Shown here piece by piece: positions 33,548-56,306 of a DNA stretch of 64,000 nt; the stretch's first letter is position 1, and every line of letters begins with the position of its first letter. This stretch comes from an uncultured Planctomycetaceae bacterium. GTDB taxonomy: Bacteria > Planctomycetota > Planctomycetia > Isosphaerales > Isosphaeraceae. Under the pieces are notes generated by a model. It was not told where the DNA came from. It ran no database searches and worked only from the letters and a program-made list of their open reading frames with translations. The stretch is from NCBI GenBank assembly GCA_963833985.1, contig CAWIAD010000001.1, positions 1,472,001 through 1,536,000 on the forward strand. Reading direction: 5' to 3'. The translations under genes and the position numbers were made by a program.

Positions 33548-33904
33548 GTTCCGCGTGTTTCCACCCACTTCGCCGGATCGCCTCCTGCTTCCCTGCGTTT
33601 CGCGCGGCATCTTACGCGCATCGGCGGGATGGAGGAAGATCAACCGGAGGGCGGAGCCCGCCGGACCACGCGCGTTGGAACGATGGTTTCCACGCGCTCC
33701 CGAAAAGTGTACACGGGGTCATCCTTGCGACCACGTGGGACCGCGCCGTCTCTTACTCGGCCCGGGCGCCGTCACGACCTGGGTGCGAGACGTGTATCTG
33801 TTCCGGTGCGCCTGATCCGGGTGACAGATGCATCATGCCTGGCTAGAATGAAGACTTCAAACCTGAGCACATTCCCGCCCTCACTCAAGACGGAAAGCAA
33901 CGCC

Positions 33905-34516
33905 ATGCCTGATGACGCGTCAGTCTCCGGATGGCTCGAAGGGCTCAAGGCTGGCGATGAGGCCGATATCCAGCGGCTCTGGGATCGCTACTTCGAGCAA
34001 CTCGTGCGGCTGGCGGGGAAGAAGCTTCCGGGGCACGCGCGCAGAGAATTCGACGAGGAAGACGTGGCCCTGAGCGCGTTCCACAGCTTTTGCGACCGCG
34101 TCGGCCGCGGGCAGTTCCCGCAGCTTGCCGACCGCGACGACCTCTGGCGGCTGCTTGTGACAATCACCGCTCGCAAGGCTGTCAGCCTGGTGCGTTATCA
34201 GAATCGCAAGAAGCGCGGGGGTGGGAAGGTACAGGGAGAGTCGGCGTTCCTGGATGCCGGCGGCGACGGGCCAGCAGGTGATGGGCTGGCGGGGTTCTTG
34301 AGCCGCGAACCGACACCCGAGATCGCGGCCCAGTTCGCCGAGGAGTACGACCGGCTGCTCGCGAAGCTCCACAATCCATCGCTCCGCACGATCGCCTTGC
34401 GCACGCTTGAAGGCCATGGCGCGGAGGAGATTGCCAGGGAGCTCGGCACGTCGTCCCGGACCGTTCACCGCAAGCTCGAGCTGATCCGGGCCCTCTGGGC
34501 GGAGGAGATGGCATGA
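33905..34516 (+). CDS. ECF-type sigma factor (planctomycete kinase-associated type)
   Basis: LWDRYFEQLVRLA, DEEDVALSAFHSF, LWRLLVTITARK, RKKRGGG, EIARELGTSSRTVHRKL; ATGA overlap with the kinase. Confidence 0.9.
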   Translation: MPDDASVSGWLEGLKAGDEADIQRLWDRYFEQLVRLAGKKLPGHARREFDEEDVALSAFHSFCDRVGRGQFPQLADRDDLWRLLVTITARKAVSLVRYQNRKKRGGGKVQGESAFLDAGGDGPAGDGLAGFLSREPTPEIAAQFAEEYDRLLAKLHNPSLRTIALRTLEGHGAEEIARELGTSSRTVHRKLELIRALWAEEMA

Positions 34517-37448
34517 TGACCTCGCGGGCGTCGGTCGTCGGGGACGAACTGCCTGTCGCCGAGTTGGTGCGGATTGACGAGGCGTGCGATCAGTTCGAAG
34601 CGGCCTGGCGCAGCGGTGAGGAGCCGGACCTGACGTCATCTCTGGAGACAGTTCCGGATCGGGCTCGAGGACGGCTCCTGCGCGAATTGCTGGCGATTGA
34701 CCTGGAGTTTCGCCGGCGCCGGGGAGAGCTGTGCCGGCCTGAAGAGTACCATGCCAGCCTTCCCGAGTACGGGGATGCCATCGAGCAGACGTTCGCGGCG
34801 ATGGAACAGGGGCGTGCGACGCTCGCTTCCCCAGGCCGCGCGTGGCGGTCAGGTTCCACAGCCGGCAAGACAGACGGCTCCGGAGCACCGCCGGATGCCA
34901 GGCTCCAGCGCGCGATTCTCAGCCCTGCCGTCAGCGCGGCAATGCGGTCGGCCGGGTACGAGGTGCTTGGCGAGCTGGGCCGGGGTGGCATGGGAGTGGT
35001 TTACCTGGCCCGCAAGCTGGCGCTCAACAGGCTCTGCGCCTGAAGATGATCCTGGCCGGCGCACACGCCGGTACGGCCACCGCGGCACGGTTCCGGGCCG
35101 AGGCCGAGATGATCGCCAGGCTACAGCACCCTGACGTCGTGCAGATCTATCACGTGGGCGAGGTGGAGGGGTTGCCGTTCCTGGAACTGGAGTATCTCGC
35201 CGGCGGAGGGCTCGACGAGCGTCTTGGCGGCAGACCGATGACCCCACGGGACGCCGCCCGCCTGGTGCAGACGGTTGCCCTTGCGATCGCTCGGGCGCAC
35301 CGTGAGGGCATCATCCACCGCGATCTCAAACCCGCGAACATCCTGCTGGACGCGGCCGGCAATCCCAAGGTGGCGGACTTCGGGCTGGCCAAGATCCTGG
35401 ACTCGGACCAGGGCCTGACGAAGTCACGTGCCGTGGTTGGCTCGCCCAGCTACATGGCACCCGAGCAGGCCGAGGGGAGCCTGTCCGAGGTGGGGGTGGG
35501 CACCGATGTCTATGCTCTGGGCGCAGTGCTCTACGAGCTCTTGACCGGGCGGCCGCCCTTCCACGCACCGACGGCCATCGAGACGCTCGCCCAGGTGAAA
35601 GCGAATGACCCGGTACCTCCCACTCAGGTCCAGCCTGGCTTGCCGCGCGACCTGGAGACCATCTGCCTGCACTGCCTGGAAAAGTTGCCGGCACGGCGGT
35701 ACGCGTCGGCCGATGAGCTGGCCGAGGATATCCGCCGCTACCTTGCCGGCGAGACCATCCACGCCCGATCGGCTTCCGTCCGGGAGCGGGTGCTCAAGTG
35801 GTCGCGGCGCCGCCCGGCGTTGGCGACGGCCGCCGGCGTGGGCGTCGCCGCGCTGGCCGTGCTGCTGGCTGGCGGCTTCTATTACAACGCCCGGCTCCAG
35901 GCCGCGCTCCGCGAGGCCGTGCGCGAACGGAACATCACCCAGCGCAGCCTGGAGGAACTCGTCTTCGGCATGCAGGAAGCGCTCGGCGAATCCTCGGCGA
36001 CCCGTGCCCTGCGGCAGAACTTGCTGCTCACGGCCATCTCGGGACTGGAGGACGTCGCCCGGCGGACCGCCGCGGCCAAGCCCGACCTCAGCCGCGCGGT
36101 CGCTCACCGCAAGCTGGGCGACATCTTCCGCCAGATTGGCAGGACCAACGCCGCACGCGACCAGTACGAACGCTCTCGCGGCCTCGCCGAGAACCTCCTG
36201 GGGAACCCGCCTGATCCGGTCGTGGCGGAATCCCTGGCCAGGGCCTATCTCGGCCTCGGGCAGTTGAGCATGATGCGCCGGCCCACTGAGGCCAAGGCGT
36301 ACCTCCAGCGCGCCGTGGAGCTCTCCATGCTGGTGGAAGCGGCGGTTCCGGCTCACGGCAAGGCGCGCCGCGGGCTGATCGAGGCCAGCTTCCAGCTTGG
36401 CCGGGCGCACGGCTTCGCTGGTGATTACCCGGAAGCCGAATCCTGGTTTCGCAAGTCCAGCGACCTGACCCGGAACTGGCTCGCCGAGGAAAAGAATAAT
36501 ACGCTAGCCAGCGACATGCTCGCATCCTGCTACCGCAAACTTGCCGATATGCGAAAGTTTGCGAAAGATTTCGAGGCCGCCCGCAATCTTTACCTTGAGG
36601 CGATCGCGATCGGCGAGGGGATCACCGCCGGCACATCCGGCAACACCGAGGCCCACGAGCACCTCGCCACCGCCCTGCACGACCTGGCCGGAGTCCTCTA
36701 TACCATGCGGCTCCCCGCCGAGGCACGCGGGTATCTCAGGCGGGCCGAGACGCTGTGCAACCAGCTCATTGCCGGTGACCCGGAATCGGTGGAAAGCCAG
36801 GTCCGGCTGGTCCTGGTCCTGGCCGACCTGGCTCGCATTGCCAGGGACGAAGGAGACTACGTCGCCGCCCTCGAAAGCTACGAGAAAGCACGTGACCGCC
36901 TCGTACAGCTCAAGAGCCGCCACCTGGTTGAGGATTATGGCCCGCTGGAAGGCCATTACCTGGAGGGCTTGCAGGAAGCCTGCGACGAGTGCCGCAGCGC
37001 TCCGCTGGCGCTCGGTGAGTTGAGCGCGATCCGGACTCTTCCGGGCGCCGAGGCGATCACGTTGCTGAAGACACGTGCCCGGCTGCTCTGGGCCGCCGGT
37101 CGCGTGCCGGAGTTTGTCGAGACAGCCCGCGTGCTGCTGAAACAAAAACCCGGCCGGCCGCAAGAACTCTATGCGCAGGCTCGTGCCCTTGCGCTCTGCG
37201 TTGCCTGTCTCGACTCACGGTCTGAACCGGTTCCACAGATCGACAATCGGTTGCAGCTGCGCCAGAATTGCGTGGTGCAGTCGCTGGCGGCGCTCGATGA
37301 GGCCACTCGGCAGGGCCTTGACGACGTTCAGCGCATCGAGACGGACGAAGCCCTGGCACCGGTGCGGAAGGAGCCGGGCTTCGAATCGATGATCGCCCGG
37401 CTCCGCAATGGAGCCGAAGCCGTTGCCAGGGTGAAGCCCAGCAACTGA
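34513..37448 (+). CDS. Membrane-anchored Ser/Thr protein kinase with TPR-like C-terminus, frameshift at ~35039
   Basis: LGRGGMGVVY / ALKMI, HRDLKPANILL, DFGLAK, GSPSYMAPEQ, DVYALG; TM then TPR-like helices. Confidence 0.92.
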
Positions 37449-38128
37449 CCGCTCCCCTCTCATGCCGTGTTGCTTGAGAAGTGCGCCGGCCGTGCTTGAA
37501 TGGTTTCGGGATGCTGCGAACGCATTCAGGGCCTGCGTGACGGCGAGTTCGACCGAGCAGTCTGTACGGCCGTTTCGAGTCGTTCTTTGGGCTCCTGATT
37601 CGAGCTGATCTTACCAGCGGCGATCTTCACGGCAGAGTCGCTCTCAAGATACGCCCGGTCGAGCCGATCGATCCTCTCGGGCACGCCGGCTTGCGCGGCC
37701 TGCGCCGCCTCCAAACCTTCAGCTTACCGTCCTTGGGCCGCAAGCCGTGCGATCCATCCGGTCAAGCTGGGCCAGTGCCTCATGACAGTCCCGTCCGCGT
37801 GCATGAAGTCAGCCGGCTGATCGCGGTTGAGTTCCCGGTCGCCCATGCCGTTGCCCCCCGCGGGACGCGGACGGTTTCGGGTGTTTTTTTCCATGAAAGC
37901 CTTGCATTGCCGCAGTATGATACCGAACTGCCCCCCTCTTGCCTTTCAAAAAAAATGGTTTTCTTCCGTCGGTCGGATTGGCATCGTCCCGGCTCTGCCG
38001 CGGCAACCGGGATCCGAAGAATTCGCGAACGGGGAGAAAGGAAGGCGCAGGGACGTGCGTACTGTGTTCTTGACAAGCTGTCCCATCAACGCTGACCAGA
38101 CTTGCCCGTCAATCCCGGAGATGATTTC

Positions 38129-41059
38129 ATGGCCCAGGCAGACCCATCCACCAGATTCCCGGAGCTCCGGCCGCTCCGTTCGGATCCGACGCTTCATCAC
38201 TTCCTTGGTTTTGGACTTTATCTCGTTGGTGACCGGGACTTTGACGTGGAGACGCAGAGTTTCGTCCGGACGCTTTGCCTGTGCGTCTTCTACATTCCCG
38301 TACTGGCCCTGCGCTCGTACCGCGTGGCTCCCAGAGACGACGGCTGGCAGTACCTGGGAAGCGTTCCGGTCTCCACACCGGCGCGTCTGCTGAGCCTGGC
38401 GGCGGCCGCGACGCTGTTCGGCGGGGGTGGCTTCCTCACCTGGAACGTCGTTTCCAACTTGCCCGACCGCGTGGCCCTGCGCAAGCTGGGCGAGGCCGGA
38501 CAGCTCGTGGCGGAGGGGAACGCCGCCAGCGCGGCGATGCTCTACGCCGAGGTGGCTTCGGGACCGACCGGGCATGCCGGCCCGGCCGCCCGGCAACTGG
38601 CGGGATTGCTCAAAAAGGCACGCTTTCAGCATGAGTGGAAGGGCCGCGAGGAGATCGTTCGCGCGGCCCTCAAAACCCAGAGGGCAGGACGCTGGCCCGC
38701 TTCCGTCGCGTCGCTCGCCAAGGACGGACTTGATGTGGCTCGAAACATGGCCAGCAGCGACCCGAAGGGCGCATGGCTTGTCCTCGACGCCATCGCGCCG
38801 CTGGCCTCGCAGGACGCTTCGCTTGCGGATCTCCGTCTGCAACTGCTGGAACAGAGCGTCGCCGCCGACCCCGCCAGCCCCGAGTGGTCCTCGCGCCTGG
38901 CGCTCGAGTACGAGTCGAGGGACCAGTTTGACCGTTGCGAGAGACTCCTCGTACCACTGCGCGCGCAACTCGGGGACCTTGAGGGTGCACGGATCCTGGC
39001 CTCCATCGACGTCCGGGCCAACCGCATCGAGCAGGCCTTGCCGCTGCTTCGCACCTACACCCGCGAGCGACTCGTGCGGTTTCAAGCGGCCGAGCGCAAG
39101 CTCCAGGCCGCCGTTCGATCCTGTCAGGAGAAGAGCATCAAGCATCTGGAGATCGACCATCCCGGCGACTTCTCGTGGGACACCTATCAATCTGCCAATG
39201 AAGAGGTTCGCGAGAAACTTGTGACAGAATATGTGATGCGCAATCTCAAGAATGATCCGGACATCCTGCGCACCCAGCGGGCAATGATCTCCGAGTCCGG
39301 CGTGGCAGCCACGGCCTTGCAACTGGGCCTGCTGCTGCTCCAGCGGGCGCAGGCTCAACCGGATAGCCGCAAGGCGCTGCTTGATGAGGCGGAGAAGACG
39401 TTTCTGGCCGTCAGCCGTGTGGCGGGTGACCGCGAGGAATATCAGCTCAGCCTGGCTCAGGTCTACTACTGGCAAGGCAAGCATGCCGATGGTCAACTGC
39501 TGCTGGACAACTTGCTCAAGGCCCATAACCGCGATCCGGAACTGCTGCTGCACGCAGCGAACATGCTGCGCAAAGTGGGCAGCGTCTCGCAGGCGCGCGA
39601 GCTCGCCGAGGAAGGTTACAACAAGGCGCCCCAGGGCCACGTCAAGGACGGGCTCGCGCTGCTGTTGGCACTGATGTGCGAAGACGAGGATTGCCGCAAG
39701 ACCTGGTACCCTCGCGCCAACAGCAAGGACCCTCAGGTGAAGGCAATGGTGCTGGAGGAAAAGGCCAGCCACGCATTCCTTGATGGAAACATGGCGCTGG
39801 CGGTCAGCAGCCTGAGATCGGCCGTTTCGGTCTATGAGTTCATGCCGGAGACCGCAAGCGTCCTGAACAACACCTGGGTTGTACTCAGCCGCCTGGCCGT
39901 GCTCACCGGCGATGCCAGAGAGCGCCAGCGCGCCGCGGCCAAGATCGCCCGCGCGACCGAGCTGGATCCGAGCAACAGCCTCACGCTCAAGAATGCAGCA
40001 AGCTCGTTGATCGACGGCGGTCTGCGTGAGCTGATCGGGCCGGCCGTCGATTTTGACCTGCTCAAGGAGGCGCCGGGTCAGGAGATGATCCACTTGCTTG
40101 CCAGGGACGAGCAGGTGTGCGCGGCGCTCGTCCGGCGGCACGGTGAACAAAAACAGTTAAACCGCGCGCTGGCACTCCTGAACAACGTGATCGTGCTGTC
40201 GCCGCGAGATCCCGACAATTACGAGCAAGCGGCCCGCATGCTGGTGTATCGAAGGGACACCGAGGGACTCCGAAAGCTGCTCGCCTCGCTGCTGCGCGTT
40301 GAGCTGGATCTGGGCGACGCCGCTCGAGAGTTCAGGGACCGTGAGTCCGGGAAAAATGATGAATTGTGGAAGCGAACTACGGAGGCTGCTCTCAAGTACA
40401 TGGAGCCGAACGTGCAGGCGGCCCGTTCCAGGGGAGGCGCCACATTTGCCCTTGCCGTCTCGCAAGTCGTCTCTCGTCGCATCGCGGCCGATTCTTACGG
40501 TATCAAGGCCGACCCGAACGCCCTGGTCGCCCTGGCCGAGGAAGCGTACGCGGCGTCTCCCTCGCTGTACACGCGCTGGATAATTGCCAACGCATTGCTC
40601 TTTCGCGCCGGCGACCGACTGGCCAGGGCTGACCAGAAGTTCGCCGAAGTCCGTGATCGCTCGCGCAGGTCGCTGTCGTCGCTGGAGCTATTCTGCTGCG
40701 TCCTTTCGAGCGATGGCCCGATCAAGGACCTGGTGCTCAAGGACCCCGACGTCATGCACGCCATCGACCTGATGCGGGAGACGTACGCCGCCTCTCCTAC
40801 GTACGCAGCCGGAGTTCAGCTCTGGCTCATGCTCCGCAGCCGCTATCCGGAAGTCGCCAGGTCCGTTGCGAAAACATACCTCGAGAGTGAGCCGGACAGG
40901 CTGGGAGACGAAATCCTGGCACGGATCAAGCCGTACGACGAGACCCAGGTTTTGAAGGCATACGGCAAGGCCCTCATGCAAGGCCAGGAAAGTGCTGCAC
41001 GGAAAACCCTTCAGGACGCCACCGGCCGGGGCATTTCTCTCCCCATCGAGACAAGGTAG
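38129..41059 (+). CDS. Large membrane-anchored TPR-like hypothetical protein
   Basis: ~976-aa ORF; N-terminal GFGL..G.RD.D...FYIPV.AL..YRV domain, TM, then alpha-helical repeats. Confidence 0.82.
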   Translation: MAQADPSTRFPELRPLRSDPTLHHFLGFGLYLVGDRDFDVETQSFVRTLCLCVFYIPVLALRSYRVAPRDDGWQYLGSVPVSTPARLLSLAAAATLFGGGGFLTWNVVSNLPDRVALRKLGEAGQLVAEGNAASAAMLYAEVASGPTGHAGPAARQLAGLLKKARFQHEWKGREEIVRAALKTQRAGRWPASVASLAKDGLDVARNMASSDPKGAWLVLDAIAPLASQDASLADLRLQLLEQSVAADPASPEWSSRLALEYESRDQFDRCERLLVPLRAQLGDLEGARILASIDVRANRIEQALPLLRTYTRERLVRFQAAERKLQAAVRSCQEKSIKHLEIDHPGDFSWDTYQSANEEVREKLVTEYVMRNLKNDPDILRTQRAMISESGVAATALQLGLLLLQRAQAQPDSRKALLDEAEKTFLAVSRVAGDREEYQLSLAQVYYWQGKHADGQLLLDNLLKAHNRDPELLLHAANMLRKVGSVSQARELAEEGYNKAPQGHVKDGLALLLALMCEDEDCRKTWYPRANSKDPQVKAMVLEEKASHAFLDGNMALAVSSLRSAVSVYEFMPETASVLNNTWVVLSRLAVLTGDARERQRAAAKIARATELDPSNSLTLKNAASSLIDGGLRELIGPAVDFDLLKEAPGQEMIHLLARDEQVCAALVRRHGEQKQLNRALALLNNVIVLSPRDPDNYEQAARMLVYRRDTEGLRKLLASLLRVELDLGDAAREFRDRESGKNDELWKRTTEAALKYMEPNVQAARSRGGATFALAVSQVVSRRIAADSYGIKADPNALVALAEEAYAASPSLYTRWIIANALLFRAGDRLARADQKFAEVRDRSRRSLSSLELFCCVLSSDGPIKDLVLKDPDVMHAIDLMRETYAASPTYAAGVQLWLMLRSRYPEVARSVAKTYLESEPDRLGDEILARIKPYDETQVLKAYGKALMQGQESAARKTLQDATGRGISLPIETR

Positions 41060-43006: not shown

Positions 43007-45250
43007 CCTACTTTCCGCACATCTCGCCTTGACTATCTCGTAATTTCCGTGTGCCCTCTTTCGGCCAGTCAGGCTCAAATCTCGTAGGCTTTGGGTATCC
43101 CCAGCAGGCGCAGGATTCTCTTCTGGAGCCGAGTTAACTCTGTGCTGAACACCTCAAGAGGGCGTTTCCCAGCCTTCAGGGAATGCTCTTGAACGTCCTC
43201 GTACAGGTCGATCACTTTTCGAGCCGTCGGGCGTCGGCAGGCCCGACCTTCGGAATACAGTGGCAGGCTCTCGATTCCCGCTCGTTCCATCGCGCGGCGG
43301 AGTTCTCGCTCCAACAGCGCCTCGACCAGCAACACGAAGAAGTACACGCAGAGCAAGGCCTGAATCCGACTCACCTCCTTCAGGTACATAGGCGCTACCA
43401 CGAAGTCAGTCTTCAGGTGCTCGAACCGTCGTTCGATGGCCGGTTGCTGTTTGTAGGCCAAGAGCAGATCCTGCTCCGTCATCTTCGATTCGTTGCTCAC
43501 CAGCGGGAAAATGCCATCACAGCGGGCCTCCTCATCCAGTCGCTCCAACTCAATCCGATGCTTCAACGAGTAACGGAGCTTCTCCTCTCGGACGTACCGC
43601 GTGTCCTGTCCAGGCCGGCCGCGTCGCTCCTGGCGGAACTTTTCGGTGACCTGCTCCTCGATCTCGACCGAGATCCACTCGGTGACCTCACAGTCTCGGA
43701 GCAGCTCCTCGACCGCCTCGGCGACCTTGGCTCGACTGCGGTACCGGGTTCGGGACGAGGCGAGCTTGGCACGCAGTTCGTCCAGTCGTTTCAACGCCTT
43801 CTCCAGCCGGGTCAGCCGTACCTCCGCATCCAACTCGGCCTTGCGTGTGCTGTGATACCAGATCAGCCGGTAACCCTCGGTGGTCTGGCTCGCAGGTTTG
43901 CAGATCGAGAAGCGGTCGGTCAACTGTCCCTTGTCGTCGTACTTGTCGTGGGTCCATCGCCACTGGATCTCTCCCCGGAGTACGGCGCCGCGGAAGGCAC
44001 CGTCCTCACTGCGAGTTCGCGGCAGCACGCTGAGGAACCGACCGCCGCGCTGATGCAGATAGGCCATGTTCTCGGTGGTGGCCAGCTTGCAGTCGGCGAT
44101 GTAGAGAAAGTCTCGGCGTCCGGTCAGTTGACAGAGCAACTCCCAGGTCTCCTGGTGAGAGCGGTCGTCGGTGGCGTTGCCGCTCTCGACGCGAAAGTGC
44201 ACCGGGACGGCACCGTCGCCGGTCACGGTGAGGATGTAGAGTAGCTGCTTGAGGTCGGGGCGGTGGTCTTTGTTATGACCCCAGGTCACCGCCAACCGCA
44301 ATTGTCCCCGCAGGGTTCGCTCCGCCTCCGCCGACTCGTAGTCACCGTGGAAAGTGATGGTGGTCGAGTCGTTGTGTAACTGGTCGAGGCTGACGTCGAA
44401 TTCGCGTACGGCATGGGCCGCGACCTTCAGGGCCAACCCCGAGAGATTGGCGTCGAAGAGACGGTCGAGGGCCCGGCCAACTCGATCGTCGTTCATTGCG
44501 GCGACTTGGACATCGGACAACCCGAACAGTTTCGGCTCATGGCGGGCCACCCACTCACCGACACCATAGAGTGGCTCACGCGAGATCAGCAGGTTGCGCA
44601 GCAGGACGAGCAAGGCCGTGGCCGTGGGGACCCGAGTGCGGCCGTCCTCATGGGGCAGGTGGTCGCAGAGAAACTCGCGAAGGCGGAGCCGACTCAGGAA
44701 GTGTTCCAGGATGGGCACGGCGGCAATCCGCCGCGTGTTGAGCGTGCGCGTGCGTCCCTTCGAGCGGGCCGTCTCGCCGGGTTGGCGCGGTCGTTGAGGT
44801 TCGTTCATGCGGATCATCTCCGGAGGGTTTGCAGCGAGTTGGCCGGTGTCCGCCGCCGGGCCTTCCAGGGCCGTGAGGGGAGCAGGCCGACCGCCGCAGG
44901 GCTTGCCGCAATGATGGCGGAGGAGATCGGGACGTCAAGGACAAAAAATCTTGTGATTCACTTATGACAATTTGCCTTGACGTAAGTTGTGAGCCGCTCA
45001 ACTTACGCTCATAGCCCGTGTCACAAGTCGTCGCGGCGAGAATCGCGGCGCGCGGCTGGACATTGCCAAGTCATAAGACAAGGCGAAGAATGGCTCGAGT
45101 TCAGGAACGGTCCGGTTGGCGAACCATCTGAACCGAACAAGGTCCCCGTGCCGATCGACTTGTAGATGTTTACCGACCCTGGGGCCGCGTCTGAGAAGAT
45201 GGCCTCAGGTCGAATTCGGGGAAATCAAAGGGAGATGTGCGGAAAGTAGG
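43007..45250 (-). mobile_element. Complete IS1634-family insertion sequence (2244 bp)
   Basis: Perfect 19-bp TIR CCTACTTTCCGCACATCTC (43007-43025; complement 45232-45250); 6-bp TSD TGGAAA at 43001-43006 and 45251-45256. Confidence 0.93.
43075..44817 (-). CDS. IS1634-family DDE transposase
   Basis: NDDRVGRALD, HNDSTTITFHG, GHNKDHRPDLKQ, GNATD, IADCKL, YKQQPAIERRFEHLK. Confidence 0.92.
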   Translation of the reverse strand: MIRMNEPQRPRQPGETARSKGRTRTLNTRRIAAVPILEHFLSRLRLREFLCDHLPHEDGRTRVPTATALLVLLRNLLISREPLYGVGEWVARHEPKLFGLSDVQVAAMNDDRVGRALDRLFDANLSGLALKVAAHAVREFDVSLDQLHNDSTTITFHGDYESAEAERTLRGQLRLAVTWGHNKDHRPDLKQLLYILTVTGDGAVPVHFRVESGNATDDRSHQETWELLCQLTGRRDFLYIADCKLATTENMAYLHQRGGRFLSVLPRTRSEDGAFRGAVLRGEIQWRWTHDKYDDKGQLTDRFSICKPASQTTEGYRLIWYHSTRKAELDAEVRLTRLEKALKRLDELRAKLASSRTRYRSRAKVAEAVEELLRDCEVTEWISVEIEEQVTEKFRQERRGRPGQDTRYVREEKLRYSLKHRIELERLDEEARCDGIFPLVSNESKMTEQDLLLAYKQQPAIERRFEHLKTDFVVAPMYLKEVSRIQALLCVYFFVLLVEALLERELRRAMERAGIESLPLYSEGRACRRPTARKVIDLYEDVQEHSLKAGKRPLEVFSTELTRLQKRILRLLGIPKAYEI

Positions 45251-45650: not shown

Positions 45651-45747
45651 TGATGGTCTCGCCCCCCCTTTCCGGTCCCAGCTCAGTATGAGACAATAGC
45701 TCACTTGGCAGTGTTGAAAGAGATCGGTCGATGTCTTGGACCGGGCA

Positions 45748-48700
45748 ATGGATGAGACGAAGAGCCTGTCTGAAGCTCAAGGCTCGCAACCGCTCGGTGA
45801 AGGTTTGACTGGCTCCTCGGATGAGACGAAGAGCCTGTCTGACACGAACGGCTTGCAACCGCCCGTCGTGGGTTCGGGTGCGTTGGCGTCAGGCGACCCC
45901 ACGAGGATCGGGCGCTACCGGATCATCCGCCGTCTCGGTCAGGGCGGGTTCGGGCGAGTCTACCTGGCGCACGATGATGACCTCGACCGACCGGTCGCCA
46001 TCAAGGTGCCGAACCCCGAGCGGATCAGTCAGCCCGAGGATGTGGAAGCCTACCTGAACGAAGCCCGCATCCTCGCCCGGCTGGACCACCCGAACATCGT
46101 TCCGGTCTTCGACGTCGGTCGCACGGAGGTTGGTCTCTGCTTCGTGGTCTCCAAGCTGGTGGAGGGCAGCGACCTGGCGGTCAGGATCGGTCAAGGTCGT
46201 ACGTCCTTCTGGGATGCGGCGGAACTGGTCGCCACGATCGCCGACGCATTGCATTATGCCCATACCCGAGGGCTAGTGCATCGGGACATCAAGCCCGCCA
46301 ACATCCTCATCGATGCCTCGGGTAAACCGTGTCTCGCCGATTTCGGGTTGGCTCTCCAGGACGAGGATTTCGGCAAGGGCGGGGGACTGGCTGGAACTCC
46401 GTCTTACATGAGCCCGGAACAAGCCAGGGGCGAAGGGCATCGGGTTGATGGTCGCTCGGACATCTTCAGCCTGGGCGTGGTCTTCTACGAGTTACTGACC
46501 GGTCGCAGGCCGTTCCGGGGGAACTCGCTCCAAGAGCTCATCGAGCAAGTGAGCGACGCTGAGGCTCGCCCACCCCGGCGAATCGACGACACGATCCCCA
46601 AGGAGCAGGAGCCGCATTTGCCTCAAAGCGATGTCGAAGCGGGCGTCGGGAAGGTACGCCACGGCACGGGACATGGCGGAAGATCTGCGTTTCTTCATCC
46701 AGGCCGCCCGCGGCACTGGCTCAACTCCTCTCAGAAGAGTCCCAGGGAGTCCGCCCGAATCGACTCTGGAAGCGGCCCCACCTCCGTCCAGTTCCCAGCG
46801 ATCGGAGTCCGATCAACGACCGATCAAGATTGTGCCCAGGGGATTGCGGTCATTCGACGAGCACGACGTCGACTTCTTTCTGGAACTGCTCCCCGGGCCC
46901 CGCGACCGCGACGGATTGCCCGAGAGCATTCAGTTCTGGAAGCGCAGGATTGAGCAACGCGATCCCGAAATGACGTTCAGGGTCGGGTTGATTTACGGGC
47001 CGTCAGGCTGCGGCAAGTCGTCGATGGTCAAGGCCGGACTCTTGCCCCGGCTGGCCAAGCACGTCCTGCCCGTTTACAGCGAAGCAACCTCGGACCAAAC
47101 CGAGAGCAGAGTCCTGAACGGGCTACGCAAGCTCTGCCCCGGCCTGCCGCCCGAAGCGGGTCTGGTTGATTCGCTGGCAGCCATTCGTCACGGCCGGGTG
47201 CTGCTTCCTGCGCAAAAAGTCCTCCTGGTGCTGGATCAGTTCGAGCAATGGCTTCACGTGCAGCGCGGTCGGGCGAACACCGAACTCGTCGCCGCGCTAC
47301 GGCAATGCGACGGCGAGCGCCTCCAGGCGATCGTGCTCGTGCGAGACGATTTCTGGATGGCGGCAACGTCGTTCTTCGACGACCTGGAGGCCGAGTTGAT
47401 CCTCCGCCAGAATGCCGTTGCCGTCGACCTCTTTGATCCGCGTCATGCCCGCAAGGTCTTGAGGGCGCTCGGGACCGCGTACGGAATCTTGCCAGTGCGG
47501 CCGGCCGACTTTTCAAGAGAGCAGCATAGCTTTCTGGATGAAGCCATCGCTGATCTTGCCCAGGACGGCAAGATCATCTCCGTACGGTTGACCCTCTTCG
47601 CGGAAATGATGAAAGGGAAGCCGTGGACTCCAGCCACACTGCGCGAGGTCGGCGGCACTCAGGGAATCGGTCTGACGTTCCTCGAAGATACCTTCGGCGC
47701 GTCCACAGGCGCTCCCAGGCATCGCCTTCACCAGAAGGCTGCCCGGGCCACGCTCAAAGCTCTCCTGCCCGAAAACGGCACCGACATCAAGGGACAGATG
47801 AGATCGCGCCAGGAGTTGCTCGAAGCCTCGCGTTATGTCAAACGACCCAGAGACTTCGACGACCTGGTCCGGATCCTCGACGGCGAGCTTCGCCTGATCA
47901 CGCCCACTGACCCGGTGGGTTCCTCGAGTGAAGGTCAGCAGGCCACACCAGGGGAACAGTATTACCAACTCTCGCATGATTATGTGGTGCCCTCATTGCG
48001 TGACTGGCTCACCCGCAAGCAGCGAGAGACGCGGCGAGGACGAGCGGAATTGCGGCTGGCAGAACGGTTGGCGTCATGGAATGCCAAGCCCGAGAATCGC
48101 CTCCTGCCGATCACCGTGGAATGGGCGAACATCCGGCTGCTCACGCGGAAGAAGGATTGGACCGAACCAGAGCGCCGCATGATGAAGTGCGCGGGGCGGG
48201 TTCACGGACTGAGGGCGCTCGGAACACTGGTCTTGATTTCACTGATCTCATGGGCAGGGTGGGAGGGCTATGGCAGGCTACGGGCGTCGGCTCTCGTGGA
48301 GTCGCTTCAGAGGGTGGGTACACCCGATGTGCCCGCCATCGTCGAACAACTCCCGCGCTATCGCCGCTGGGCTGATCCTCAGTTGGTGCGTGTGGTGCGG
48401 AGTACCGATGATCAAAGTCGGGAGCATCTCCATGCCAGCCTGGCCCTGCTCCCCGTCGATGCCACACAGGTTGGCTACCTCTTCGACCGCCTCTCCAAAG
48501 CCACTCCCACCGAACTCCCTGTGCTGCGTAATGCCCTGGAAACCCACCGTTCCACCCTGACTCCGAAGCTCTGGACTGTGCTGGAGTCAGCGAAGACGGG
48601 CGATCCCAGTCTGCTTCCAGCCGCCAGTGCTCTGGCAAGTTACGACCCAGAGAACACAAAGTGGGAAGCCGTAGGCGGCAAGGTGGCTCAGGCGCTCGTG

Positions 48701-51700
48701 ACAATCAATTCCATCTATCTGGGTCCGTGGCTTGAAGCCTTGCGGCCAATGCGTGGCAGGCTGACAGCCCCGATGGTCTCGATCTTCCGGGACAAACGTC
48801 CCGAGAGCGAACACACCCAGGCGACCAACATCCTGACCGATTACGCCAGCGGCGATCCCGACCGCCTTGCCGAACTGCTCATGGTGTCCGACTCGAAGGC
48901 ATATCTGAGCCTGTTCCCGGTCGCCGAGAAGAAGGCAGAACAGGTCTTGCCCATGTTCCAGGCTGAGCTTGCCAGGAGAGCAACCTACTCCTGGAACGAT
49001 CCACCGCTCAATCCATCCTGGACAAAACCCGACGCGGCGCTGGTCAGCCGGATCGAGTCGTCACAGGGCATACTCTCCGAGCGGTTCGCCTTCTGCCAGA
49101 CGATCCCAATGGACGAGTTCCTCACGACCGCAGAGACACTCCGCATGTCAGGCTATCGTCCCATCCGGTTCCGTCCTTACTCCAAGGAGAAGACGGTCAG
49201 GGTAGCGGGGATCTGGACCCGAGATGGTCGCCCCTGGCGAATGTCTTCGGGGCTGACTGATGATGAGGTCCGAGAGCACGATGAACGAAACAAGAAAGAC
49301 AATTTCCTTCCTGTCGATGCCGCCGGTTACGAAACAATCGATAAGGCAGGCTTGCCTGCCGATCGCTACGCTGCCCTCTGGGTCGAGAATACTGGCGATG
49401 ACGACGCCCGGTTGTACGTCGGGGTCACGACCGATGACGAGACCGAGGTTCAGGATAAACTGAAGGAGGCGAAGCTGATCCCGCGGACACAGCACGCCGT
49501 GGTTGGGGCGGACGGTCGCACCAGATACTGTGGCGTCTCGGGACGCTTCCCAGCAACCGCCATCACGGGTCAGACTCATCGAGACCAGTTCGAGGGAAAC
49601 TTCGAGCAGAACCAGGCGCACCAGGGCGACCAGTTGCTCATCGACGCGGCGATCAGCGGGGCGAGCAGGGCACAGACGAGCCAGGATCGCGCGTTGGCTG
49701 CCCTTGCGCGTACGGACAGGGAGCTCAAGACCAAGCCCGACGATCTCGATGCCCGGTTGGCTCGCGCCCTCGCGAACCTGAGTCTCGGGGAGAATCAGAA
49801 AGCACTCGATGACCTTCAGTTCGTGATCGGGAAGTACCCGGAGTCCATCCCTGCAAAAAGGTACAAGGTCATCGCCCTCGCTCGACTCGGCAAGAAGCAA
49901 GATGCCCGGTCCGAGCTGGCGAAGTTCCAGAAAGAACAGGCAGCCGAGAGTTCCAAGCTCTACCTTGCCACCGTCTTGGCGGCCGAATTGGGCGAAGGGG
50001 CGGACAAGGCGGCTCGAGACCCTGGATGCCGCGCTCAAGAAACAGCCAAAGGATGCAGATCTGAGCTATGATGCTGCCCGTGCCCTTTCCCTGGCATCGA
50101 AAGCAATCTCTCGAACAGACAAGATCAAGGGTCGTCAACTTGCGGTTCGCTGCCTCCAATTGCTCAAGGAGGCCGTCAAGAACGGGGATGCCGATTTCGG
50201 CAAAATGGATGAGGACCGTGACCTCGATCCAATCCGGGAGGACCCCGCATTTGCCGACATCATGAAGGCAGGTCACCCCGACCGCCGCTACACCGCCGTA
50301 TGGAACAGCGATGCGCGCTTCGAGGCGATTCCGATCTACGGCGTCGATCCCGCTTCCCAGTTGCAGAAGTGCCGGGAGCTAATCGCCCAGGGTTATCGCC
50401 CGGTGTCGCTCACGCTGACTCGCGCCATCTCCGATGGACCGTTGGCGACTGCCTCGGTCTGGCACCGCCCTGCGGTCAGCGAGGAATTGAAGGATCGCCT
50501 TGCGGAGCGTCAGGCAAGGGCAGCGGTCGCCCTGGTCCGAATGGGCAAAGCTGAGGATGTCTGGACTCTGCTTCGGCATAGCGTCGACCCCCGAGTGCGG
50601 AGTTTCATCCTCAACTGGCTGGATCCCCTGGGTGCCGATCCGAAGTTGATCGCCGCCGAATTTGACCGTCTGGATTCTCCCGTAACCCACCACGCGCCAC
50701 CCGCCACCCAGAAGATGGAAGCCGTTTTGTTCCATCCTGAGACCTCAATTCGGCGGGCGTTGATCCAGGCATTGGGATCCTATGGCACGGAGGGGCTGTC
50801 TCCAGGTGAGCGGGAGCCGCTGACCCGTAAGCTACTCGACCTCTACTGCAACGACCCGGACGCAGGCATCCACGGTGCGGCGGAATGGACACTGCGCAAG
50901 TGGGGACAGCAAGGCAAGTTAAAGGAGGCTGATGCCCAGTTGGTGAAAAGAAAAGACTGGGGCCATCGGCGGTGGCTTGTCAATGCTCAAGGGCAGAGCT
51001 TCGCCGTGATCGAAGGACCGGTCGAGTTTCGCATGGGCTCGCCGCCGACGGAGCCGAATCGTCATGCGAACCTGGAAATTCCGCGTCGGCTGGTCATCCC
51101 CCGCCGCTTCGCCATCGCCGCCAAGGAGGTTACCAAGGAGCAGTGGCAGAGGTTTGAGCGGACCCACCCCCAGCACGGATTGCCTCCGAGCTCCGTGAAC
51201 CAGTTCAGTCCCGACCCGGACGGTCCCATGTCCGGTTTCACCTGGTATATTGCCGCGGAATACTGCAACTGGCTGAGCGAGCAGGAGGGATTACCCAAGC
51301 ACCAGTGGTGCTACATCCCTAATGAAGCAGGTGCGTACGCCGACGGGATGTCCATTCCCGCCGACGTGCTCCAGCGCACGGGCTACCGCCTGCCGACCGA
51401 GCCGGAATGGGAATACGCCTGCCGCTCGGGCACGGTGACCAGCTATTACTTCGGACTGTCGACCGAGCTTGTGGACAAGTACGTGTGGTCTCAATCCAAT
51501 AGCAACGATCATGCCCGGTCCTGCGGGAGCTTGTTTCCGAACGATCTGGGGCTCTTCGACATGCTGGGGAACGAATTTGAATGGGTGCAAGATAGCATGG
51601 ATAGACCAATGCCGAAAAGCGGCGGAGCATTCATAGATAGATTGTCCTTAGAATACTTATCTGACAATATCCATCGCGTGCTTCGGGGCGGGGCGTTCAA

Positions 51701-51800
51701 CATCCTACCGACGGGCGACCGCTCGGCGCTCCGTTGGGGGACCGCGCCGTCGTACCGCTACACTGACCTCGGTTTCCGCCCCGCCAGGACCTACCCCTGA
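45748..51800 (+). CDS. ~2000-aa Ser/Thr kinase - STAND (nSTAND1-like) NTPase - helical/tandem repeats - TPR - FGE-sulfatase/C-type-lectin-fold protein; frameshifts at ~46612 and ~50011
   Basis: Kinase LGQGGFGRVY, HRDIKPANIL, DFGLA, GTPSYMSPEQ; P.RGL..F, GPSGCGKSS, LLVLDQFEQW, VRDDF, LSHDY; GYRP..Y..IW repeats; FRMGSP, EVT, YRLPTEPEWEYACR, NDLGLFDMLGN..EW, RGGAF, GFRPART. Confidence 0.88.
45750..45842 (+). repeat. 69-bp-period duplication in the kinase N-terminus
   Basis: GGATGAGACGAAGAGCCTGTCTGA at 45750-45773 and 45819-45842 (DETKSLS x2). Confidence 0.9.
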
Positions 51801-52311
51801 GTTGCTTTACAACCTGAGCACCCTGCACCTTGTGAAAGCACATTTGTATGTAAAGATGAAATTTATATCAAACTGATTCATTGCGTTTGAGGGGAGACGC
51901 CCTCGACACCGATGCCATCCTTCCCGGTCAGCCAGGCGATACCGTCAACATCGCGACGACGAACCTGACGCACCTGAACCGGTTCCCGGGAATCGACGCC
52001 CGGACCTGGAATCAGCTCCGGTAGGCATCCGGCAGGGCAGGGAGGTCGGGCCAGTCCGAGAAGTCACCGTGTCCGGGCCGCCCATCGAAAGTTCGGACCG
52101 GTCGCCAGTCGCTTCTGCAATCGCAGTTGGAGCTGACGCCGTTGTGGCATGGCCAGTTGCAGGTGACCGTCCTGCCGCCCAGCTGGTATTCGAATGCTTG
52201 GGCGACAAGACGGCTACGGAACTTTTTCTGCGCTCACGTGCAAGAATTGACGGTTTCGCGCTTCGAGCGTTGATTGGCGGTCGGCAGTTTCACATGAGAG
52301 ACTCCGTTCGC

Positions 52312-52716
52312 TCATGTCTCCTGTGCGACCGCCGCGCTCCGCTCGGAGACCAGGCGGTTCATCGCTTCATTCGCCGGCCGGATCTCGAATTGCGTTCCCC
52401 ACTTCATCCTCATCGCCGGGTGTTTCGACAGGAGCGCGATGGCGTGGTTCAGGTCGCGGGCTTCCAGCAGCAGAATGCCGCCGAGCGTTTCCCTGGTCTC
52501 CACAAACGGACCATCGGTGACCTGGACCTCGCCATCCTTCATCCGCAGCGTGACTGCGTTACGGGGGGAATCGAGCGCTTCTCCGCCCAGGAAATGCCCG
52601 CCTCGCCGAAGTACATCGTCGTAGGCAAAACACTCCTCCATCATTCTCTGCGCGTCTGCCTGCGGAATCTGAGCAAACGCCGCTTCGTCGTAGAATCCTA
52701 AACAGACGTATTTCAT
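52312..52716 (-). CDS. YciI/DGPF-domain protein
   Basis: [19 protein letters not shown]. Confidence 0.92.
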
Positions 52717-52783
52717 GCGACCCTCCGTTCAAGGACTGCCGTGCTGGATTTGCCCGGTCTTCCCGCTGCCGAACTCTCTTTCA

Positions 52784-53230
52784 TTATTTAAAACGGGCCA
52801 GGCCGTAACCGTCACGATCCTCCGAGCGGGCTTCCAGTTCTTTCACTTCCTCCAGCCGCTCGGGGGTGACCACCCCGGCAAAGTCCTCCGGTTCCATGAG
52901 CGGACGAATTTCGACGTCGGAGTCTTCGGCCGTCAAGGTCGGAAATCTCTTCACCCAGTCAATCGCTTCTTGGAGTGAAGAGACCTTCCAGATCATGAAC
53001 CCGGCGATGAGTTCCGTCGTCTCGGCGAATGGCCCGTTGGTGACGTTGCGATTTGAGCCGGAGAACCGAACACGGGCGCCGCGAGAACTCGGCGTCAGTC
53101 CCGTACCGTCGAGCATGATTCCCGCATTGATCAATTCTTCGTTGAACTTGTCCATGGCCGCGAACGCTTCGGGGTCCATCTCGCCGGCTTCCGACGCCGC
53201 TGTCGCTCTGGCAATCACCATGACTTTCAT
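52784..53230 (-). CDS. YciI/DGPF-domain protein
   Basis: GLTPSSRGARV, VTNGPFAETTELIAGF, EAIDWVKR, EIRP. Confidence 0.92.
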   Translation of the reverse strand: MKVMVIARATAASEAGEMDPEAFAAMDKFNEELINAGIMLDGTGLTPSSRGARVRFSGSNRNVTNGPFAETTELIAGFMIWKVSSLQEAIDWVKRFPTLTAEDSDVEIRPLMEPEDFAGVVTPERLEEVKELEARSEDRDGYGLARFK

Positions 53231-53289
53231 GACGGAACTCCTGAACTTGGTGGTTGGGAATGCGATGGAAGTCGGTCATTTTCCGACTG

Positions 53290-53325
53290 TCACCAGTAGT
53301 CAAACGAGAAACTCGCCGATCGACA
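53290..53325 (-). promoter_or_regulatory. ECF42-type promoter upstream of the YciI pair
   Basis: Minus strand TGTCGA-N17-TGAC-TACTGGTGA; a similar TGTCGA-N16-GGTC lies just upstream of the ECF42 gene (TCGACA at 55953-55958). Confidence 0.55.
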
Positions 53326-53562
53326 ACAATCTCCGAATACTGCCAGGTAACCGTTCACAGCCGTGGTAGGGCAAGGCATGGCCCTGACGGTCCACGCCAA
53401 CTCTGGGCCAGCAAAGGGGCTCCCCACCATCCTAATCCCGCCCGGCTCGCATAGCCGCGTTCGACCGACCCGGATAGGATTGCCGCGCCAGGGAAGGCCG
53501 TGAAGCCAGGGATGGCCTGGAGTGCTTTCAAAGCCTGCACTCTTGCTCGGAGGCAAGTAGAC

Positions 53563-54543
53563 ATGCGTAAGGTCGGACGAGCCATTCTCCTGTTGTGTGC
53601 TCTCTCGGGAAGCGTCCGGAGTCTTGCCGGCGGCGACCGAGGCGGCGACAAGGAAGCTTTCCAAGCTGCGCGCGGACACTCCTCTCCTCAAGAGGCATTC
53701 CAGGCGAGACGGGCCGCGATCGCCAGGAGGGACTGGCGTACGGCCTTCGCCTCGATGACGCCGGAGACTCAGGACCACGCGGTCGTGGAGATGGCCTGGG
53801 CCTGGCTCTGGCTCGGATCGGGCGCCACGGGCCATGAGAGGCCGTGGGGCAGGTCCTATCCGCCGCGCTGGCCCGGAGACAGATTTTACGTGCTCGGAGT
53901 CGACGAGACGCCGTGGGACGGCCTCGGAAAAACCGCGCGCGACGCAGCCATCGCCAGGGTCCGCGAGATCACGAAGACGCATGGATTGGAACTCCAGAAG
54001 TTCCAGGCCGAGTACGAGAAGAGAGGCAAGGCGGGCGAGGACGAGATCGTCGCGGAGCGCGCGAAGCGCGAAATCGATCATCTCAAGGCGTACTTGAAGG
54101 AACATCCCGAGGAGCGTGAGGAGGGCGAGAAGTTCCTCAGGGAGCATCCCGAGGCCTTCGGCACCGGGATCACGGAGGTCCGCCCTTGCGAGAGGCTCCG
54201 GCCCGATTTGCTCGAACCCGATATCGAACTGGAAGCCCGGGTCATCCTCTCCCAGATCATCGACAAGGCGGGGTTCTACGAGGAATCGACGGATCTGGTC
54301 AAACCCCGGGTCGTGATCCCGGGACAAGAAGATTACGCCTTCGGCGACCTGCAAGGCGTGACGATAGCTGGGGACACGGCCAAGGGCTGGGTCGTCTGTC
54401 ACACCGACATTCATGTCAGTGGCTTGAAGGACGCGATCAAGCCCGGACGCGTTCTCTGCCGCTTCCGTAGGCTGAATGGCCGGTGGTACAATGACAACCG
54501 GGAGGGGGATCTGGCCCGATACGACGAACCCCGGGAGCGTTGA
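53563..54543 (+). CDS. Secreted hypothetical protein
   Basis: Signal peptide MRKVGRAILLLCALSG after GGAGG; C-terminal GDTAKG..FRRLNGRW resembles NTF2-like endings. Confidence 0.75.
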   Translation: MRKVGRAILLLCALSGSVRSLAGGDRGGDKEAFQAARGHSSPQEAFQARRAAIARRDWRTAFASMTPETQDHAVVEMAWAWLWLGSGATGHERPWGRSYPPRWPGDRFYVLGVDETPWDGLGKTARDAAIARVREITKTHGLELQKFQAEYEKRGKAGEDEIVAERAKREIDHLKAYLKEHPEEREEGEKFLREHPEAFGTGITEVRPCERLRPDLLEPDIELEARVILSQIIDKAGFYEESTDLVKPRVVIPGQEDYAFGDLQGVTIAGDTAKGWVVCHTDIHVSGLKDAIKPGRVLCRFRRLNGRWYNDNREGDLARYDEPRER

Positions 54544-54662
54544 TTCACGTCCAGGGCCCGGCGATCGTATCTCTCGACCGGCACTGTCCCGAGCAGGGCG
54601 GCGGATCGGGAAGGCTTTGGACTTGGCCCTGGACCGACGGACGGGCGTCTAACGCGACGAAG

Positions 54663-55910
54663 TTAGATTTCAGACAATCGCCGAGTCAAAAATCGCCGCT
54701 CGGGTTCCTGCCGGGCCAACAATAATGCCCGCTCATACGAGTGCTTCGCGTCGGACATTTTTCCGGAGCGCCGGCACAGCTCCGCCCGGGCCGCATGGGC
54801 ACGGTGATAATCCACCAGGTCTCCGCGATTGAGAATCGCATCGATCAGGACCAGCCCCGCTTCCGGTCCGTCCCGCATCGCGACCGCGACGGCTCGATTG
54901 AGCTCGACGACCGGCGATGAATGGATTCGCTGAAGTGCGGAGTAAAGCACGACAATCTGATTCCAGTCTGTCTCGGCGGCAGTGCCTGCCTGGGCATGAA
55001 TTGCCGCAATGGCAGCCTGGAGCGTGTACGCACCAAACTGTCGCGACCGAAGGGCTTGCTCGACCAGTGCCGTGCCCTCGGAAATCAGTTGATGGTCCCA
55101 AAGTGAGCGGTCCTGCTCTTCAAGCAGAATAATCTCACCGTCCTGGGAAACGCGTGCTTGCCTGCGCGATTCGTTGAGCAGCATCAAGGCCAGCAGCCCC
55201 TTGGCCTCCGGATCGGGAAGCAACTCGAGAAGTAACCGGCCCAGTCGAATCGCCTCGGCTGTGAGATCAACCCGTAAGAGCGAACCGCCCTGCGAGGCCG
55301 CATATCCTTCGCTGAACACCAGATAGATGGCGGAAAGTACCGCGTCCAGCCGTTCGGGCAGGTCCCCCAGAGACGGAACGACATAGGGAATCTGTTCGTC
55401 ACGAATCTTCGCCTTGCCGCGGACGATGCGCTGGGCCATCGTTGATTTGGAGGTCAAGAACGCGTGGGCGATCTCCTCGGTCGTCAGTCCGCAGACCTCG
55501 CGGAGCGTGAGCGGCACTTGCAGCTTTGGGTCGATGGCGGGATGACAGCACGTGAAGATCAGACGCAATCGATCGTCTTCGATCTCCGTGGCGGCCCGAG
55601 CCGCATTTTCATCGGCGACTTTGTCGACTCGCGAAGCGATTTCGGGGTGAAGTTCCTTCAGGCGGCCTTGCCGGCGAAGGGCATTGATCGCCTTGAATCT
55701 TCCCGTGGAGATCAACCAGGCTCGCGGATTTGCCGGCACCCCATCTCGTTGCCAGGTCTCCACGGCGGCTGCAAACGCCTCGTGCATGGCATCGTCCGCC
55801 AGATCAAAATCGTTCAGCAAGCGGACGAGCGAAGCGAACACGCGACGTGAGTCGGAGCGGTAGAGATCATCGATCCGGTCGCGGATTGTCACGGAGGCAT
55901 CGAGTTTCAT
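54663..55910 (-). CDS. ECF42-type sigma factor with C-terminal TPR (DUF6596) extension
   Basis: W..DGVPANPRAWL, DDRLRLIFTCCHPA, LTLREVCGLTTEEIA, QRIVRGK, YLVFSEGY, QDRSLWD, LNRAVA. Confidence 0.93.
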   Translation of the reverse strand: MKLDASVTIRDRIDDLYRSDSRRVFASLVRLLNDFDLADDAMHEAFAAAVETWQRDGVPANPRAWLISTGRFKAINALRRQGRLKELHPEIASRVDKVADENAARAATEIEDDRLRLIFTCCHPAIDPKLQVPLTLREVCGLTTEEIAHAFLTSKSTMAQRIVRGKAKIRDEQIPYVVPSLGDLPERLDAVLSAIYLVFSEGYAASQGGSLLRVDLTAEAIRLGRLLLELLPDPEAKGLLALMLLNESRRQARVSQDGEIILLEEQDRSLWDHQLISEGTALVEQALRSRQFGAYTLQAAIAAIHAQAGTAAETDWNQIVVLYSALQRIHSSPVVELNRAVAVAMRDGPEAGLVLIDAILNRGDLVDYHRAHAARAELCRRSGKMSDAKHSYERALLLARQEPERRFLTRRLSEI

Positions 55911-56095
55911 GTCGATCGTTTCACGCCAGCTTGACCGGGTCCGCGGTCCGTATCGACATTGGTCCAGACGGCCAGATTTTACCTGATTCTTTTCAGAATT
56001 TGAAATCCGCCGTGACAACAACCACTCCCAACAAAAGTTCAAATCCCGTCCTTGGTTGCGAATGCGACAGGCGACGGGATTTGTTGTTTCACGGA

Positions 56096-56117
56096 GTCGG
56101 GACGACTGGATTTGAAC
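56096..56117 (-). other. tRNA 3'-end fragment (Pro-like), att-type scar
   Basis: Minus strand GTTCAAATCCAGTCGTCCCGAC = T-loop plus acceptor 3' strand ending CCGA; followed by an 11-bp hairpin (56040-56050/56073-56083). Confidence 0.55.
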
Positions 56118-56306
56118 TCCGCGTGGCCGCCTACCTGAAGCCCTGTCCTGCTTCGGTCGGATCGACCGATGGCCGTTGTCAGAGGATGATCTTGATCGTA
56201 CGTTGTGGCCAGCTCGGCGTTGCTGACCCTGCAACCCAAGGGGCGAATTCTTGGTTCTGTCGTGGAAGTGACTGTGCAACCGGTAGTTTTGCTAGAGGTC
56301 AAGAAC

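Follow-up and report, generated by a model that had tools for sequence, protein, structure and literature searches.

DGR targets in which a STAND NTPase precedes a C-terminal FGE/CLec domain are known from multicellular bacteria, where they fall into clade 5D and include DGR 3 and DGR 6 of Thiohalocapsa PB-PSB1 (PMC10907252). Together with degenerate loci, STAND-CLec targets of multicellular bacteria are considered putative antigen sensors (PMC10907252, PMC7159879). The receptor gene considered here shares with the targets described in the first of these reports the nSTAND1 domain and the C-terminal FGE/CLec domain with a variable region (VR) at its 3' end, and degenerate loci without machinery are also described there. 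It differs from those targets, as far as they are described, in its N-terminal Ser/Thr kinase, its BTRD1 and TPR repeats and its Isosphaeraceae host, and from the loci of the same report in that neither the hairpin nor any part of the machine is left and no other DGR is present in the assembly. Its tentative assignment to clade 5 DGRs (Roux et al.), a group defined by RT phylogeny, is by this resemblance. Kinase-CLec remote targets and their paralogues are known in cyanobacteria (PMC7517822), and the proteins described there resemble the present one in the fusion of a kinase to CLec and in dispersed paralogues with graded likeness to the template repeat (TR). However, the genomes of that account hold a DGR and a remote target is defined in it by more than 50% identity, whereas here no DGR was found and the grading is read as decay.

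For BPP-1, DGR homing, the IMH and the requirement for a hairpin have been established, with upstream sequence being dispensable (PMC3240598, PMC5758913), while a GC hairpin downstream of the VR is not universal and is given for 34% (PMC5758913). As in BPP-1 (as described in PMC3240598), the VR studied here contains a GC-rich 3' constant stretch, and its relatives carry a GC-rich downstream hairpin. Among the papers listed by the literature searches, none dealt with DGRs of Isosphaeraceae or with AT-rich DNA on the 5' side of a VR; the supplements of two surveys (Dataset S3 of PMC10907252 and the data of PMC8144416) may list planctomycete loci. We regard the locus as a probable relic of a known kind of DGR; what is new is the AT-rich flank and the decay series, both of which merit family-wide follow-up.

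The receptor gene and its variable region

The window, the whole stretch of 64,000 nucleotides that was analysed (C1:1472001-1536000), belongs to an assembly of 10.16 Mb with 65% GC that consists of two contigs and is 96% complete; both contigs end in intron copies, and plasmids could be absent from it. The features of the locus are collected in Table 1.

Table 1. Features of the receptor gene, its variable region and the flanking DNA (window coordinates).
Feature	Position	Strand	Remarks
Receptor gene: Ser/Thr kinase - nSTAND1 - BTRD1 - TPR - FGE/C-lectin	45748..51800	+	~2000 aa in intact homologues
Hanks-type kinase domain	45916..46560	+	PF00069, 1e-46
First frame switch	46598..46611	+	Alignment of intact homologues across switch
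nSTAND1 NTPase	46838..48088	+	PF20703, 2e-19
BTRD1 repeat and weak TPR matches	49109..49849	+	PF17660 (BTRD1)
Second frame switch	49992..50011	+	Alignment of intact homologues across switch
FGE-sulfatase-like C-lectin domain	51024..51788	+	PF03781, 2e-32
Coding segment upstream of block, fast-evolving, not AT-rich	51584..51626	+	16% divergence, 8 close pairs of relatives
AT-rich rare-codon block just 5' of VR	51627..51668	+	Outside TR, common to most family DGR targets
DGR variable region (probably fossil), homologous to family TR	51669..51790	+	Ends in GC-rich constant stretch (IMH-like)
Stop codon and TTTAC-repeat 3' flank	51798..51835	+	First TTTAC (51806-51810) retained, second decayed
AT-rich spacer, leading to GC hairpin in relatives	51836..51889	+	Ends without hairpin here
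Junction: relatives' hairpin, avd, RT, TR absent	51890..51895	.	Putative deletion breakpoint
3' fragment of PIN-like gene	51896..52024	+	Residues 108-155 of ~155 aa

The receptor gene is split over three frames in this assembly (45736-46953, 46631-50071 and 49902-51800), and intact homologues of 2007-2098 aa span both frame switches in alignment. Since the background of the assembly amounts to 7 frameshifts in 54 orthologues or 0.084 per kb, at which two or more frameshifts in 6 kb have a probability of 0.09, the two switches are unremarkable; they may be assembly errors, and they do not suffice to label the gene a pseudogene. The giant kinase-STAND gene of an earlier note on this DNA thus has to be read in three frames here. 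The layout is that of effector, STAND and sensor, with a kinase, nSTAND1, repeats and CLec that are continuous in intact homologues, and on the analogy of its domains and of the literature there is about an even chance that the protein acts as an NLR-like sensor, in which ligand binding by the C-lectin would lead to STAND oligomerisation and kinase output. The VR lies inside the C-terminal CLec/FGE domain, the top solved-structure match of which is the FGE-type CLec variable domain of the DGR variable protein TvpA from Treponema denticola (2y3c, E 3e-18); the AlphaFold model of the fold is too poor for use (pLDDT 54). The window gene encodes a ~2000-aa multidomain protein that is presumably cytoplasmic, whereas TvpA is a lipoprotein.

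A transposase gene (DUF4277, weak DDE_Tnp_1) lies ~0.9 kb upstream of the receptor gene at 43075-44817 (-). The closest DNA matches of the receptor gene come from the family's other genera (74-75%) and not from its own (70-71%), which hints at transfer. Elsewhere in the window, an ECF sigma factor gene is followed by a kinase-TPR gene at 33629-37448 (+), an ordinary pairing in planctomycetes, and a 985-aa open reading frame at 38102-41059 (+) has apparent predicted membrane segments and no Pfam match. Downstream, at 52312-56279 (-), lie a pair of YCII genes and a gene for an ECF sigma factor that carries DUF6596; by eye, a similar ECF sigma gene set lies downstream of the TR in one relative (L041).

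Of 121 family genomes searched at the DNA level, 49 gave a match, and in several of them another short copy lay 1-2 kb from the first. These second copies are TRs, placed behind avd (PF22296) and RT. Full-length TR/VR pairs of the family measure 120-125 nt, start ~15 nt before CGGGGC and show 10-19 adenine differences, with other differences mostly numbering 1-3 (7 in one pair). The earlier note had described the 3' end of the gene as a DGR variable region with adenine-centred differences, possibly ~200 nt long; matching to the TRs of relatives bears this out except for the length, which is ~122 nt. Its fixed and variable codons were recovered at 51684-51790, in frame with the FGE-domain open reading frame that ends with TGA at 51800. 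Of the variable codons, most of which the earlier note would derive by changes of adenines only, TGG (51735-37) needs a C>G change at 51737 against AAC in the family TR.

With adenine and invariant columns defined from 17 TRs of relatives, 51669-51790 is changed at 15 of 27 adenine columns and at 6 of 72 invariant non-A columns (Fisher 2e-6). Such enrichment alone is weak evidence, since non-target paralogues also vary there (p down to 2e-3; 14-17 of 25 A columns changed). The synonymous third-position test is stronger for VR identity. The window VR retains 22 of 24 invariant third positions, while comparison of the paralogous FGE C-termini, which the earlier note had suggested, gave 10-12 for the four long paralogues in the genome; the 42 weakly TR-like homologues retain at most 17. 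In 57 VR-type sequences, a set gathered in part by scaffold pattern and hence biased in this direction, variation is nearly confined to TR-adenine columns, and fixation reaches 84-100% in most of the remaining columns, including those at synonymous positions (the set comprises the ungapped members of 70 VRs, that is 79 minus decayed TRs, short flanks and duplicates). The adenine columns of AAC, AAT, CAA and AGG codons retain A in 21-61%. The IMH-like end reads AGGAC in the window VR and AGCAC or AGTAC in TRs, and the G at 51788 is shared by 55 of the 57 VRs. The closest of the 17 TRs differs from the window VR at 12 non-A positions, and a metagenome search with the exact scaffold of the window VR returned no cognate TR (a looser scaffold returned 38 loci), which is why off-template changes were counted against family-invariant columns. 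Judged against the TRs of relatives, 51669-51790 can be taken as a true DGR VR.

The missing machinery and the 3' flank

Neither a cognate TR nor a DGR-type RT nor an Avd was found in the genome. No TR was detected by blastn (word 7) or by a pattern search (0 matches), and in a scan of both strands with adenines as wildcards the next-best site had 22 non-A mismatches in 107. Cassettes of relatives used as queries matched only the window VR itself and unrelated genes; the non-coding template copy sought by the earlier note was found, with avd and RT, in relatives and not in the assembly. Query genes for Avd from relatives, which match PF22296, had no counterpart in the assembly, and the family DGR RT found no match at 1e-40. 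The genome has 24 RVT_1 matches; the 13 translated ones represent two group II intron-like RTs (YADD), whole or in pieces, and the others have the same scores and lengths. The group II intron-like element is present in about a dozen copies (for example at C1:774301-778200), most of which carry a ~2-kb insertion at the same site within the RT gene.

In relatives the cassette runs in the order target, TTTAC repeats, AT-rich spacer, GC hairpin, avd, RT and TR. The family hairpin (ACCCGGC-GNA-GCCGGGT) has a 7-bp stem and a 3-nt GNA loop and lies 74-93 nt after the VR, in contrast to the distance of 4-34 bp and the GRNA loop described for BPP-1 (PMC3240598). It is present in 35 of 68 family targets, with an avd start within 400 nt in 23, and since one intact cassette (L047) has a different hairpin, this form is not obligatory. 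No GC hairpin follows the window VR, and within 51800-51960 perfect inverted repeats with stems of at least 6 are lacking. In a comparison of 56 scorable targets out of 70, among which kin are not independent, changes at invariant non-A columns had a median of 1 with the hairpin (n=29) and of 5 without it (n=27; p=7e-5), the window VR having 6.

Beyond the spacer, the window continues in the 3' fragment of a PIN-like gene that is whole in relatives; no 5' part and no other copy of it were found in the assembly, and the fragment has its own 15-nt deletion. The PIN label stems from full-length relatives, which match PF01850 below the cut-off (E 0.002-0.02), the window fragment alone matching nothing. 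No locus has a same-orientation PIN gene after the TR; the PIN genes that adjoin DGR loci in two genomes are on the opposite strand, with 43-45% identity to the PIN-like query. From the sequence, 51890-51896 looks like a deletion junction, and the missing hairpin and the changed VR would be read most simply as a deletion followed by drift.

We therefore consider it probable that 51669-51790 is an abandoned DGR target, whose last variant was frozen after loss of the cassette. The gene would derive from an Isosphaeraceae-type cassette in which the receptor with its 3' VR was followed by TTTAC repeats, AT-rich spacer, hairpin, avd, RT and TR. As long as this cassette was complete, the TR would have been reverse-transcribed with errors, by the mechanism known from BPP-1, and the ~27 adenine positions of the VR, which encode the C-lectin binding surface, would have been rewritten. 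A deletion would then have taken everything from just before the hairpin into the PIN-like gene, and since template and targeting hairpin were both lost with it, the last variant would have been frozen and left to drift by ordinary mutation, with six off-template changes.

Two readings compete with this account of the cassette. The earlier note had taken the gene for a remote target; if this target were still active, its VR would be diversified in trans by a DGR that sits on a plasmid missing from the assembly or is carried by a subpopulation. Remote targets (PMC5758913, PMC7517822) and subpopulations with intact DGRs (PMC10907252) have been described, the assembly is 96% complete and the first TTTAC is retained, but no DGR part occurs in 10.2 Mb, the cis hairpin is missing at the junction with no perfect inverted repeat in its place, and active homing would overwrite the six changes at columns invariant in 17 TRs; activity in trans is thus unlikely. 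Slightly less likely still is an artefact, in which a misjoin at 51890-51896 dropped the hairpin, avd, RT and TR during assembly. Against it, VR and second TTTAC are decayed on the retained side, the PIN-like fragment has its deletion, and the dropped DNA is found nowhere else in the assembly while similar truncations recur in many independent assemblies; in its favour are the indel errors of this assembly (the 7 frameshifts in 54 orthologues) and the abruptness of a junction that removed parts of two unrelated elements.

Several candidate signals near the VR were rejected. For the family hairpin as a REP repeat, the genome gave 29 scattered loose matches and no evident family. No sigma-70 promoter was detected in 51400-52400, and promoter look-alikes of the form TG-n-TAnnnT seen by eye in relatives are a pattern dictated by codons. 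Comparison of the upstream block with the downstream spacer gave 8.26 within loci against 7.68 across loci for an inverted repeat (p 0.03) and 8.20 against 7.73 for a direct repeat (p 0.06), both with n=35 and confounded by kinship.

The AT-rich block upstream of the variable region

The abrupt switch to AT-rich rare codons just upstream of the variable codons, to which the earlier note had drawn attention, is real. The AT content of 51627-51668 is 69%, whereas the corresponding segment of seven FGE paralogues in the genome has 17-40%. From codon 60 on, the AT-richest 14-codon windows of the FGE-frame open reading frame start at 51627-51633 (AT 0.69-0.71, with a mean of 0.39 for the frame), the maximum in the 3.3-kb STAND part being 0.60, and 5 of the 8 ATA, AGA and TTA codons of this frame lie within 51603-51657. 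In 61 in-frame family targets, AT at third positions is 0.79 in the block and 0.25 upstream of it, and ATA accounts for 96 of 154 Ile codons in the block against 5 of 86 upstream. All five full-length family pairs that passed the filter show the rise. As a general rule for DGRs the block was rejected, with a rise of at least 0.15 in only 11 of 40 VRs belonging to other lineages, chiefly Poribacteria along with a few planctomycetes. The block is typical and not obligatory, since L046 lacks it, as does the pair L028/L045 (45-47% AT, 1 difference in 42), which was left out of the pairs below as a ninth and which has the hairpin, the cassette of L045 being intact.

The block also diverges rapidly. 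In 8 close hairpin-bearing pairs it differs at 73 of 319 sites (23%), compared with 29% in the non-coding spacer, 6.5% in further-upstream coding DNA (the stretch by which the pairs were chosen) and 11% beyond, and its amino acids differ at 37% against 7%. This pace, and the observation that the L044/L254 differences inspected by eye all involve A, would fit a second segment of the VR with a different, A-rich template, that is a long VR. Over 24 pairs, however, A-involving differences make up 0.68, close to the ~0.70 expected from base composition, A is conserved to 83-85% in several of the block's columns, homology between TR and VR stops at 120-125 nt, and a search of 8 cassettes for a template of the block turned up none (12-15 non-A mismatches in 45 at best), all of which argues that the block is not TR-derived and makes a second segment highly improbable.

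From its sequence, then, the AT block is to be taken as a cis feature of family targets outside the VR. In this respect the family, with its shared AT-rich block, departs from BPP-1, for which upstream sequence is described as dispensable (PMC3240598). The block might be an easily melted zone or a zone of local mutation beside the integration site, an idea that we put forward with less than even confidence; it would be accounted for by selection for ease of melting as well as by local mutation biased towards AT. Block AT fades with TR likeness (Spearman 0.63; medians 0.71, 0.62 and 0.45 in the high, middle and low classes).

Orphans and decaying cassettes across the family

The VR scaffold is carried by 26 of the 121 family genomes, and for 12 of these (73-99% complete) the searches found neither a TR remnant nor an RT of family type. 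Some of the 12 will be false orphans because of this range of completeness and since the RT search scored at most 15 candidates per genome. Remote targets are described as escaping surveys anchored on the RT (PMC8144416), and orphans of the present kind are likewise overlooked by RT-first surveys. Broken cassettes are common in the family and include lone TRs, truncated RTs and a fusion of VR and spacer. In the latter (L237, G011:C63, near 436391-436461) the VR is joined directly to the 3' spacer of the TR, without hairpin, avd and RT, an arrangement to be expected if VR and TR had recombined. Other internal cassette deletions are seen in L252 and L236.

Identity to the TR at non-A sites falls continuously from 0.95 to 0.49 over 92 homologues, a few low scores being due to indels (92 were scored of 94 loci, comprising 30 returned ones, 60 picked from the best 150 of 246, and 4 from the own genome). 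In a quick tree high and low scorers are intermixed, with 30 label changes against 57.5 after shuffling; the direction of decay is inferred, as the tree is unrooted. From this graded TR likeness, it seems that many receptor paralogues of ordinary appearance are DGR products that have been frozen. The same tree groups the window gene with two VRs from metagenomes, one of which has the hairpin (SH-aLRT 96). That the gene was never a DGR target, being an ordinary FGE-domain paralogue with codons conserved by protein constraint, can practically be dismissed, since the adenine-column enrichment of non-targets, which would allow it, is outweighed by the synonymous positions that match the TR (22/24 against a median of 12), by the non-coding TTTAC flank and spacer common to true targets, and by this grouping with VR-type genes.

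More speculatively, and with doubt prevailing, much of the kinase/STAND-C-lectin family of Isosphaeraceae may be built by a cycle of diversification and freezing, in which a cassette rewrites its target, the machine is deleted, sometimes by recombination of VR and TR as in L237, and the variant is kept as a paralogue. As part of this proposal, the AT-rich, fast-evolving DNA on both sides of the VR, which extends into the coding frame, would be an undescribed cis signature that either helps a 65%-GC target to melt or to extrude the hairpin, or represents a mutational halo of repeated cDNA integration, and that decays after loss of the machine. If so, the AT signature would date the loss.

The family contains a second DGR-like template type (L061, L064, L069, L075, L079, L080 and L087, including a genome of the same genus), the RTs of which are only 39-47% identical to those of the first. 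Two FGE-domain genes in the genome of the window (C1:158922-159671 and C1:1278696-1279442) are 74-76% identical to it at non-A sites and are possibly older orphan targets, a reading weakened by the fact that the window VR itself scores 72% against second-type templates. REP-like palindromes lie within decayed cassettes after the VR in L030 and L249 and upstream of the TR in L056, along with what looks, by its motif, like a fragment of a REP-associated transposase. In targets of other planctomycetes and Poribacteria (L160, L161, L168, L181, L197, L205, L210 and L226), TTTAC-like repeats after the stop codon can be seen by eye, as can a GC hairpin whose short loop is of G-N-A type; the hairpin appears nearer to the VR than in Isosphaeraceae.
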